Shown here piece after piece: positions 232 to 11,465 of a stretch of 64,000 nucleotides of DNA. Below the pieces are notes generated by a model that was given only the letters and a program-made list of their open reading frames with translations, searched no databases and had not been told where the DNA came from. Position 1 is the stretch's first letter. Every line of letters starts with the position of its first letter. The stretch comes from Candidatus Aenigmatarchaeota archaeon (lineage in GTDB: Archaea; Aenigmatarchaeota; Aenigmatarchaeia; PWEA01; JACQIF01): NCBI GenBank assembly GCA_016432325.1, contig CP066684.1, positions 384,001-448,000 on the forward strand, written 5' to 3'. Both the position numbers and the translations under genes were made by a program.

Positions 232-337
232 GGATATACGTGCCCGTTGTTGCCTTTAAAGCTTCTGCTTTAGGCTTCCCTCCGCGGTCGCAAAGCCTTT
301 AAATACCTTACCTTCGTTCCTAGACTACCAATGAACA

Positions 338-361
338 ATGATGTGCGTCTTAACGCGCTGA
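338..361 (+). promoter_or_regulatory. K-turn-like motif in the rpl7ae leader (candidate L7Ae autoregulation site)
   Basis: ATGATG (box C-like), stem GTGCGT/ACGCGC, CTGA (box D); downstream of TATA TTTAAATA 298-305. Confidence 0.55.
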
Positions 362-425
362 AGGAGGCGTTTGAAACTGCGGTTTCGCGCCTCCCGGTTC
401 GTATTAACGCACTGAAGGAGGTGTT
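346..425 (+). repeat. 26-bp direct duplication (346-371, 400-425) flanking a GAAAC-TGCG-GTTTC hairpin
   Basis: CGTCTTAACGCGCTGAAGGAGGCGTT vs CGTATTAACGCACTGAAGGAGGTGTT, period 54. Confidence 0.85.
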
Positions 426-428
426 CGT

Positions 429-842
429 ATGGCTGAAGATTTGAGTAAGATTTCCGAACAGAATGTTCGGAATACTTCGAAAGAGGACCTTTCGAAGAAA
501 GCGCTTGAAGCGGTCGAACTTGCAAGGAGCACCGGTTCCCTCAGAAGGGGAACGAATGAAGTTACAAAGGCGGTAGAACGCGGACAAGCAGAACTGGTCG
601 TTATAGCAAAAGACACGGATCCGCCTGAAGTGGTCATGCACTTGCCGCCGCTCTGCGAGGAGAAGAACATTCCGTACGTTCACGTGCCTAACAAGGAAGA
701 GCTCGGACGCGCTTCTGGGATAGAAGTCAAGTGCGCCGCTATCGCAATAGCCAAGGCAGGCGAAGCGAAGAAACTGATAGACGAAATAAGAAAGGCGAAT
801 GGCATGGAGAGCAAATCGCCTAAGGAAAAAAAGAAAGAGTAA
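429..842 (+). CDS. rpl7ae: 50S ribosomal protein L7Ae with a 16-aa N-terminal insertion
   Basis: [38 protein letters not shown]; SD GGAGGTG. Confidence 0.97.
447..498 (+). repeat. Double-hairpin element, in frame within rpl7ae
   Basis: AAGATTTCCGAACA-GAA-TGTTCGGAATACTTCGAA-AGAGGACCT-TTCGAAGA; homologous to 9924-9978 and 10853-10918. Confidence 0.85.
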
Positions 843-9704: not shown

Positions 9705-9923
9705 TCTATGTTTCCCTCACAGAGTTCGTGAACTCATAAATTTGCATACGTGCGGCTACCCCACAGATTGTTAATGTGAAGAGCCTCTTAAATAACCAAA
9801 AATCTGCCGGGAAACCTGTCCGATATCTTTTTATACTCGGATTGCAACGCATATAATTCTCAAACGCTTCGCGCAAGCGAGGAGAAAAAAAGGAAATGTC
9901 AGAAGAAGGCAATTCCACAGCGG

Positions 9924-9978
9924 AAGATTTTCGAACATCCTCGAGTGTTCGAAATACTTCGAACCGCCGGTTCGAAGA
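9924..9978 (+). repeat. Double-hairpin element, intergenic copy
   Basis: AAGATTTTCGAACA-TCCTCGAG-TGTTCGAAATACTTCGAA-CCGCCGG-TTCGAAGA. Confidence 0.85.
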
Positions 9979-10027
9979 GCACTGTAGTTTCATTCTAGAG
10001 CTCGGCATTTATTAAAGGTGAATTCTC

Positions 10028-10621: not shown

Positions 10622-10899
10622 TACCAGTCGACTTCGGGGCCTTTAACGTGTCTCTCCTGTTCGTGGGGCTGACAAGCCTTCTGGAGCTGGACCAGACTGA
10701 CGTGATGCATGGCCATAGCATAGGAGAACGCATCTATCTGTTTTAGCATCTCGGCAACCCGATATCCCAGATCTTCCATTTCCCCACTGGACACCGATGC
10801 GCGAGGACCATAGATAAACATGACTACGTCGCTAGCCGTAGTGCCTGTTTTGAGATTTTCGAAACCACAGTTTCGAATACTCAGAATCGGCGCATTCAT
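10618..10899 (-). CDS. Hypothetical 93-aa ORF whose N-terminus is element-derived
   Basis: ATGA overlap with the rpl15e stop; no recognisable motif. Confidence 0.4.
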
Positions 10900-10919
10900 C
10901 CATAGTGCCGATTCTGAGA
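10832..10919 (-). repeat. Synonymously recoded duplication of the rpl15e 3' end around a double hairpin
   Basis: TCT CAG AAT CGG CAC TAT GGA TGA vs TCT CAA AAC AGG CAC TAC GGC TAG. Confidence 0.9.
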
Positions 10920-11465
10920 CGGGCGCACTTTCTCCGCGCCTTTGCCGACGCTTCTCATGCCGCGCGACTTCCTTCCCGCAGACGTCAAGCCACGGAATAC
11001 GCGCCCCCTATTGGCTCCGTCAACGACCCACGAGACGTCACGGTCGCTGCGCACCGCCGGATGCGAATAGTCGACGAGAACAATCTCATACCACTCGCTC
11101 TTGCCGTCGCGGCCGACCCAGTATGAATTCAGGACTTCCAGATTGACAAACTTCTTCGCGGCGCGCTCTTCGGCAATCCACTGGTGCGACTTCTTCGGAG
11201 TTGCCCAGCGGCCCATGCTCCTCGGTTTGCGACCGCCCGACCAAGAGGGCTTCTTGCGGCCGCCGACATCGACGCGCACGCGCGCCATGACAAAGCCGGA
11301 CTTCGCCTTGTAGCCCAGCGCACGCGCGCGGTCTATCCGGGTGGGACGTTCGATGCGCGTAACTGTGTTTTCGGAACGCCATTTGATAAGTCTCTGTTTC
11401 CAAAGCTCTCCGAGCGCTTCTTGCGGCTTGTTCCATTTCTCTGCCACATACTTGTAGAATCCCAT
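10896..11465 (-). CDS. rpl15e: 50S ribosomal protein L15e
   Basis: [41 protein letters not shown]; ATG 11465 after SD GAGGTG. Confidence 0.98.

Follow-up and report, generated by a model that had tools for sequence, protein, structure and literature searches.

An in-frame twin-hairpin insert in the L7Ae gene of an Aenigmatarchaeota genome belongs to a dispersed family of palindromic repeats

The gene for ribosomal protein L7Ae in this archaeon contains a 48-nt twin hairpin at positions 450–497 of the window, the stretch of 64,000 nucleotides analysed here. By sequence and structure comparison, the insert is a member of a dispersed, apparently non-autonomous family of repeats of about 42–54 nt that has expanded in one genus of the Aenigmatarchaeota (DPANN). 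We consider it rather likely that it is a palindromic micro-insert resembling the Rickettsia palindromic elements (RPEs), that it is translated through into a 16-residue N-terminal tail, and that its pairing is kept at the DNA level.

The L7Ae gene with and without the insert

The host gene is the open reading frame at 429–842 on the forward strand (137 codons). Its product was recognised as L7Ae (eL8) both by the Ribosomal_L7Ae domain, Pfam PF01248 matching residues 24–116 (E=5e-30, 103 bits), and by its likeness to solved archaeal L7Ae chains in the PDB, which align from residue 18 onward (E about 5e-41). The operon neighbours are S28e and L24e. The protein begins with M-A-EDLSK, continues with 11 residues and then reads EDLSK-KAL, exactly the arrangement given by the first-pass annotation, in which EDLSK occurs twice around 11 residues and 16 amino acids are extra. 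The first copy is located at 435–449 and the second, subsequently referred to as the echo, at 483–497 (both on the forward strand). They are indeed encoded differently, as the annotation had noted: 8 of the 15 bases are shared and 7 are not.

The insert itself (450–497, forward strand; 16 codons) is exactly 48 nt long and open in all six frames. Both of its hairpins are perfect inverted repeats with 9-bp stems, which bears out the earlier description of an in-frame twin hairpin inside L7Ae. Hairpin 1 (452–472, arms 452–460 and 464–472) has a TTCGAAC-type stem and a 3-nt loop. It is followed by a 2-nt linker, TA (473–474), and by hairpin 2 (475–497, arms 475–483 and 489–497) with a 5-nt loop; all three lie on the forward strand. 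The echo is spelled within hairpin 2, starting at the final base of the 5' arm and running through the loop to the end of the 3' arm. The borders of the insert can slide by the 4-nt word AAGA, which is present at both junctions. The fold has an energy of −17 kcal/mol as DNA, where it is the same on either strand, and of −22 kcal/mol as sense RNA. The corresponding z-scores are −4.9 for RNA and −6.7 and −7.7 for the two DNA strands, and none of 200 shuffled sequences was as stable.

An AlphaFold model of L7Ae calculated with the homolog alignment showed a pLDDT below 50 for residues 1–16 and above 90 for helix 1 (residues 18–35). In this model, residues 1–16 are predicted to be disordered, and helix 1 to open with the echo as its first turn. 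Among 36 homologs, L21 and K24 hardly vary.

In a genome of the same genus (G001), L7Ae begins with M-V-DDLSK-KAL and lacks the insert; its codons agree with those of the first EDLSK copy at 13 of 15 bases (L002/L057). In 39 related genomes, the L7Ae alignment begins only at about residue 17 of the protein described here. Because the codons of the insert-free gene match the first EDLSK and the relatives align only from about residue 17, the comparison identifies 450–497 as an insertion, with the first EDLSK being older and the 48 nt new. The insert is missing from G001, from contig L122, from the homologs P0005 and P0006 and from 38 further relatives. Among about 1000 homologs in a large protein collection, only P0002 carries it; P0004, P0005 and P0006, which are about as close as P0002, are insert-free. 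A related-locus search of metagenomes for a further filled L7Ae allele found none.

P0002 is encoded on Logan contig L121, where the gene order is the same as here and the 48-nt insert occupies the identical codon position. The two L7Ae genes share 75% nucleotide identity, and their third codon positions are 48% identical. Despite this divergence, both filled alleles fold alike (9 bp with a 3-nt loop, 2 nt, 9 bp with a 5-nt loop). Hairpin 1 has undergone two double compensatory changes (T:A to C:G and A:T to C:G) without losing a single pair, its 3-nt loop reads as the reverse complement in L121, and the linker is CG there. Hairpin 2 together with base 498 is identical at 24 of 24 positions, the longest identical run in the gene; the next longest runs, of 17 and 16 nt, fall in the most conserved protein segments, and the flanks of the insert are 63–71% identical. 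This identity of hairpin 2 against the flanks could reflect strong constraint or a recent spread. At the protein level, 4 of the 9 residues encoded by hairpin 1 are changed, and those of hairpin 2 are unchanged. The start and first copy of L121 are identical to the insert-free gene of the same genus at 20 of 21 positions. This first copy reads DDSSK and has thus lost the near-invariant leucine equivalent to L21; it is therefore the second copy on which the fold must rely.

The four lineages compared are about equidistant, the neighbouring 447-aa protein being 64–73% and IF-2 79–81% identical, and the two filled ones (this genome and L121) form the most distant pair of the four. A single gain therefore needs precise losses; otherwise, the insert must have been gained repeatedly at the same site or transferred. 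With a hairpin placed between AAGA repeats, such exact losses are plausible.

The leader of L7Ae (window 331–428) contains features of its own. A box C/D-like pair (ATGATGT ... CTGA) around a 3-bp stem lies just 5' of the ribosome-binding site, and GATGA...CTGA or GGAA-like motifs are found at the corresponding position in L121, L122 and G012. L7Ae autoregulates its synthesis via K-turns in its leader, and the box C/D-like pair would fit such autoregulation. A 26-nt stretch including the CTGA and the ribosome-binding site is present twice, 54 nt apart, flanking a separate hairpin (GGAGGCG/CGCCTCC, inner GAAAC/GTTTC). G012, which belongs to another family of the order, has a twin-hairpin unit in its own L7Ae leader (L013 1873–1921, minus strand), placed between a TATA-like box and the GATGA...CTGA motif.

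A dispersed family of twin hairpins

The genome studied here (G000; 875 kb in one contig, 56% G+C, 90% completeness) is rich in such structures. With a stem of at least 8 bp and a loop of 3–9 nt as criteria, we counted 249 perfect hairpins, compared with 78–98 in shuffled sequences; the corresponding numbers for G001 are 128 and 50. At 35 places in G000, two to four hairpins abut and form arrays. The consensus of 26 two-hairpin units starts with ATTT, has TTCGAAC-like arms and a short A/TA linker, continues with a second hairpin from CTT and ends in GAAGA. A covariance model built from the alignment of these 26 units detected about 37 loci in G000 and about 30 in G001 (73% complete), as well as 1–7 in some genomes of two other families of the order; in 19 genomes from other orders of the class, it found none. 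The L7Ae copy is among the best matches in G000 (54.7 bits). The motif TTCGAAC-N3-5-GTTCGAA occurs 13 times in G000, 6 times in G001 and once in G003; 38 other genomes and a reversed control lack it. An Rfam search of the whole window did not reveal any known family.

Two further copies lie in the window. The first-pass annotation had aligned the insert with 9924–9978 and 10853–10918, and both regions proved to contain family members. Copy B (9926–9980, forward strand; 55.9 bits) has the same fold and is situated between the genes for RNase P p30 and pdaD; copy C (10855–10921, forward strand; 30.7 bits) forms part of the L15e gene end discussed below. The compensatory change reported between the stems of the L7Ae copy and copy B is correct and consists of one C:G to T:A pair in hairpin 1; the loop sequences do differ among the copies, as had also been stated. 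Copy B is contained in a 39-codon ORF upstream of pdaD (window 9896–10015) that has its own Shine-Dalgarno-like run. This ORF reads copy B in the frame that the L7Ae gene uses for its own copy, so that V-R-N-T-S results in both. The four arms of copy B permit alternative pairings, and an attenuator made up of four mutually complementary arms and a small ORF was considered; this reading was set aside on the grounds that copies C and D lack the alternative pairing.

Hairpins are also found in other arrangements. A three-hairpin module occurs in at least five near-identical copies in G000 (C1, at about 13806, 273227, 370026, 448810 and 607609) and in two copies in G001. It opens with a palindrome of the TTTAAAAC type (TATA-like), continues with the hairpins CTTACGAAC and TTTGCGAAC, and may be promoter-associated. 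In addition, hairpin arrays lie directly 3' of tRNA genes (C1, about 830040–830140 and 641100–641200), and behind them the 3' end of the tRNA is repeated over about 10 nt, up to CCACCA.

We also compared the genic copies by aligning all long G000 ORFs with a six-frame translation of G001, and reciprocally. G000 has in-frame inserts with an empty site in G001 in L7Ae, uL5 and a 973-aa protein (48 nt each), and others of 45, 42 and 54 nt; inserts of 48, 48 and 24 nt in G001 face empty sites in G000. Thus, at least nine in-frame, stop-free units reside in conserved genes whose sister site is empty in the other genome. Adjacent alignment pieces in different frames did not reveal a hairpin insert that breaks a conserved gene in this comparison. 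Within genes, the unit occurs in both orientations relative to the sense strand. The hairpin arrays are poor in stop codons, with 4.94 of 6 frames open compared with 2.85–3.08 in shuffled or arm-shuffled sequences and 4.12 in random genomic pieces. With regard to placement, 4 of the 37 model matches are inside alignable conserved coding sequences, 6 at the N- or C-terminal edge of conserved ORFs and 13 between ORFs. The remaining 14 lie in ORFs without a match in G001, CysRS among them; these ORFs are mostly short and probably spurious. One twin-hairpin insert of 54 nt (C1 52548–52596, minus strand) follows roughly the eighth codon of a gene for a membrane protein; the 7-nt word TTCGCAA is repeated exactly on its two sides, and the G001 ortholog is insert-free.

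The twin-hairpin unit may be called mobile only in the sense of its presence and absence at orthologous sites, since neither a consistent target-site duplication nor a Y1 or TnpB transposase was found. Flanking repeats in single cases measure 4 to 26 nt, but around the 35 arrays their mean of 5.74 is no higher than the 5.88 of cross-paired controls, and a fixed duplication around the arrays is therefore not discernible. The outer arms of the unit resemble inverted-repeat ends, but with no regular target-site duplication a classical MITE was rejected. Profiles for the Y1 (HUH) transposase (PF01797) and for TnpB (PF07282) had no match in the single-contig, 875-kb, 90% complete genome, although the control genomes were matched. 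Consequently, a mini-element derived from IS200/IS605 was discarded. The same holds for membership among the REPs, as the consensus of the 26 units carries neither a GTAG nor a CGTC tag at its ends and no RAYT was found. What the family does share with RPEs is that it is a multi-copy, dispersed palindromic repeat with in-frame, stop-free genic copies and empty sites in relatives.

The end of the L15e gene (window about 10830–10945, minus strand) shows an unusual arrangement. The final seven codons and the stop codon are encoded twice around a twin hairpin, namely copy C at the 3' end of the gene, whose hairpin 2 consists of the terminal codons of L15e itself. One end copy is read in frame, whereas the other, beyond the twin hairpin, is out of frame and untranslated. 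The same arrangement is found in G001 (L078 2850–3000). Among the four end copies of the two genomes, all differences are synonymous, including those in the stop codons, and the non-coding hairpin arm has followed three synonymous changes of the coding arm. Between G000 and G001, the cassette shows four compensatory pairs. A BHB scan at this cassette did not detect a motif. A copy that is never used should not evolve only synonymously, and a selfish element that is simply translated through leaves this pattern unexplained.

Maintenance of the stems and origin of the insert

In the family alignment, 91% of the cells pair, and 59 cells are changed on both sides compared with 14.6 in shuffles; as the copies were picked as perfect Watson-Crick hairpins, this count is circular for pairing and mute on wobble. 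The orthologous comparisons provide an independent test, because those copies were not chosen for pairing. In the two orthologous cassettes (L7Ae here and in L121, the L15e tail in G000 and G001), the four hairpins have undergone 6 double compensatory substitutions and no pair is broken, so that pairing of the insert has been kept over a long divergence. All of these stem changes lead from one Watson-Crick pair to another. When hairpins with one mismatch were oriented to the ORF strand, G:T mismatches (55) were not in excess over A:C mismatches (71) on the sense strand, in a test that is diluted by chance hairpins (143 of 336 expected). Since there is neither an RNA wobble signature nor a strand preference, it is most likely as DNA that the stems are kept complementary. 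A flip of the DNA would fit the loop of hairpin 1, a single case, which reads as the reverse complement in L121. The first-pass annotation had concluded from the conserved structure that the element is probably recognised as ssDNA or RNA. Conservation of pairing was borne out by the orthologous cassettes, but recognition was not, given the missing G:T excess, the mixed orientation and the lack of a hairpin-recognising transposase of the Y1 or TnpB type. Further copies exist, the stems covary and the orthologs do not share the N-terminus, three points on which that annotation had made its reading depend. The insert hairpins were also inspected by eye as a K-turn or K-loop, the binding site of L7Ae; this reading was dropped, the stems being fully Watson-Crick with no tandem G.A motif.

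The following course of events would account for the insert. A unit would have entered L7Ae after codon 7 and displaced the original EDLSK from the domain, and the last five codons of the insert itself would have restored the first turn of helix 1. This copy probably survived as the hairpin-2 arm of the family reads L-S-K in frame and the loop either read E-D or was selected to do so. An insert that cuts the conserved start of a helix would survive only if it restores it, which we infer to be a matter of survivorship, possibly with later selection on the loop. More generally, units of this nearly stop-free family would land anywhere, and copies with a length divisible by three and an open frame could persist in genes wherever the protein tolerates them. 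The palindromes might be kept up by selection on a cruciform, a hairpin or a protein site, or by correction of one arm from the other. The insert would stay in the mRNA and be translated, giving L7Ae a disordered tail of 16 residues; the 48-nt length and the open frame, kept in both filled lineages, point toward translation. When the nine in-frame inserts were examined for an echo at the protein level, L7Ae alone stood out. Such a five-residue echo is unlikely for a random insert, because its BLOSUM score is 24 compared with at most 17 in cross-paired controls. However, the hairpin-2 arm giving L-S-K is a common variant in the family, found at two unrelated loci in G001, and therefore only the E-D of the 5-nt loop is specific to the site.

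Several other explanations have to be weighed against such a translated palindromic insert. It seems unlikely that the twin hairpin, although translated, has been co-opted as a cis-acting RNA that sets the translation rate or stability of the L7Ae mRNA near its K-turn-like leader. An RNA role would suit the retention of pairing between genes with no more than 48% identity at third codon positions, the standing of hairpin 2 as the longest run without a difference, the strong RNA fold (−22 and −25 kcal/mol; region z = −5), the twin hairpin in the L7Ae leader of G012 and the location of many units at gene starts. Against it, units inside genes occur in both orientations and in many unrelated contexts, G:U is not in excess over A:C on the sense strand and close relatives do well without the insert. 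Slightly less probable is a site-specific, homing- or integrase-like cassette that brings along a re-spelled gene end, so that the echo was born with the insert and L7Ae was entered in two lineages. Such a cassette would account for the patchy spread over four equidistant lineages, for an echo-bearing hairpin 2 that is identical at 24 of 24 positions between flanks of 63–71%, and for the fact that the echo differs from the resident first copy in the same way in both lineages. The purely synonymous differences of the spare L15e end, the L7Ae ribosome-binding site duplicated around another hairpin and the tRNA 3' ends duplicated around arrays could be read in the same manner. It is contradicted by the internal in-frame inserts, none of which has an echo, and by the lack of a general flanking repeat. 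The L-S-K arm, being common at unrelated G001 sites, leaves only E-D as site-specific; the exact hairpin-2 word has no other occurrence in the genome and metagenome contigs, and the searches with the Y1 transposase and TnpB profiles yielded no recombinase candidate.

That the 48 nt are removed, as an intron of the splicing endonuclease, or skipped by a ribosome hopping from AAG at 447–449 to AAG at 495–497, the mature protein being the insert-free form, is very unlikely. Splicing or bypass had been hinted at in the first-pass annotation, and some features are suggestive: identical AAG codons flank the insert in both alleles, hairpin 1 begins right after the first of them, the spacing resembles the 50-nt gap of phage T4 gene 60 (10.1101/2022.08.31.505936), and removal would fit the conserved spare end of L15e. 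Nevertheless, a relaxed BHB scan at 450/498 found no motif able to remove the 48 nt, nor is there one that would excise the L15e cassette, and the insert was accordingly rejected as an archaeal BHB intron. As a bypass element it was rejected because the codon after take-off is an ordinary isoleucine codon (ATT or ATC) and not a stop, the inserts are in frame and open and the nascent chain comprises only 7 residues. Moreover, removal would place no demand on length or frame, yet every verified genic insert has a length divisible by three, lacks stops and leaves the frame intact. In L121, where the first copy has decayed and lacks the near-invariant leucine, a hop from AAG to AAG would produce a defective helix. 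Least probable of all, and hardly credible, is an origin in place, in which a locally duplicated stretch became palindromic by drift and its likeness to the other loci is accidental. Slippage might be suspected from the AAGA words at the junctions and from the repeated peptide, but about 37 other loci here and about 30 in G001 have matching hairpins, linkers and end words, and the two EDLSK copies agree at only 8 of 15 bases.

A wider reading is also improbable, but it is kept alive by the distribution over the most distant pair, the L7Ae echo and the spare end of L15e. It supposes an undescribed archaeal micro-element that inserts at chosen gene ends, promoters and tRNA ends and either carries along or generates a re-spelled copy of the sequence it displaces. 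Both copies would then be under selection, because the cassette would be taken out, or the copies used in alternation, in the DNA or the RNA. The L7Ae insert, which two non-sister lineages share with an identical echo-bearing hairpin, would represent one homing event.

Comparison with known palindromic inserts

By mode of life, RPEs and intragenic REPs appear closest to the twin-hairpin unit, and by shape the double-hairpin elements of mitochondria; both likenesses are analogies. RPEs are about 100–150 bp long and encode a conserved peptide, and such inserts are expected to be expressed within the protein, as was reported for RPE-1; REPs carry GTAG or CGTC tags and are paired with RAYT transposases (PMC10969869; PMC3733652). 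As in those cases, we are dealing with geneless, dispersed palindromic repeats that lie open and in frame in unrelated, often essential genes, are missing in the orthologs of relatives and reside in small genomes of host-dependent organisms, a similarity by analogy and not by homology. Unlike RPEs, the unit measures 42–54 nt, is composed of two abutting hairpins of 8–10 bp whose stems vary freely, and is found in an archaeal host. Furthermore, re-encoding of the displaced EDLSK is not a described feature of RPEs. The unit differs from REPs in having neither tag nor RAYT.

Double-hairpin elements of Allomyces mitochondria and other repetitive hairpin elements are described as lying in spacers and genes, varying between close species, lacking flanking duplications and not being removed from transcripts (Paquin, Laforest & Lang 2000, as reviewed in PMC2800124; PMC4478555). 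They and the mitochondrial G+C clusters share with the archaeal unit the two hairpins and a size of tens of bases, which is a likeness in shape. They are organellar, however, whereas the archaeal units are part of a cellular chromosome and lie within genes for ribosomal proteins and a tRNA synthetase. In the bypass inserts of phage T4 gene 60 and of Magnusiomyces mitochondria ('byp'), a stop or undecodable codon follows the take-off site and the insert may be out of frame (PMC5009743, 10.1101/2022.08.31.505936). The L7Ae insert resembles them as a roughly 50-nt insert in a coding sequence, with a hairpin beside the take-off codon and a matching landing codon, the latter also in L121; it differs from them in that it is open and in frame, comes after only 7 residues and is accompanied in L121 by a decayed first copy.

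Archaeal BHB introns are known from tRNA, rRNA and the cbf5 mRNA and are defined by two 3-nt bulges separated by a 4-bp helix. They are likewise short structured inserts in archaeal genes, but the 48 nt are not surrounded by a BHB motif.

In the literature we searched, there was no description of in-frame palindromic micro-inserts in archaea. The hosts in which palindromic repeats are known to lie in frame in essential genes are Rickettsia, some other bacteria and mitochondria; here, they are found in an ultra-small DPANN genome. A unit of 48 nt has entered L7Ae, uL5 and a tRNA synthetase, and its hairpins outlast the saturation of synonymous sites. For annotation, this means that stop-free units give rise to spurious ORFs and odd N-termini in this lineage. 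The family offers a compact system for studying how palindromes are kept up without a transposase and how proteins absorb inserts, and for asking whether the spare end of L15e is the mark of a new mode of moving or removing DNA.
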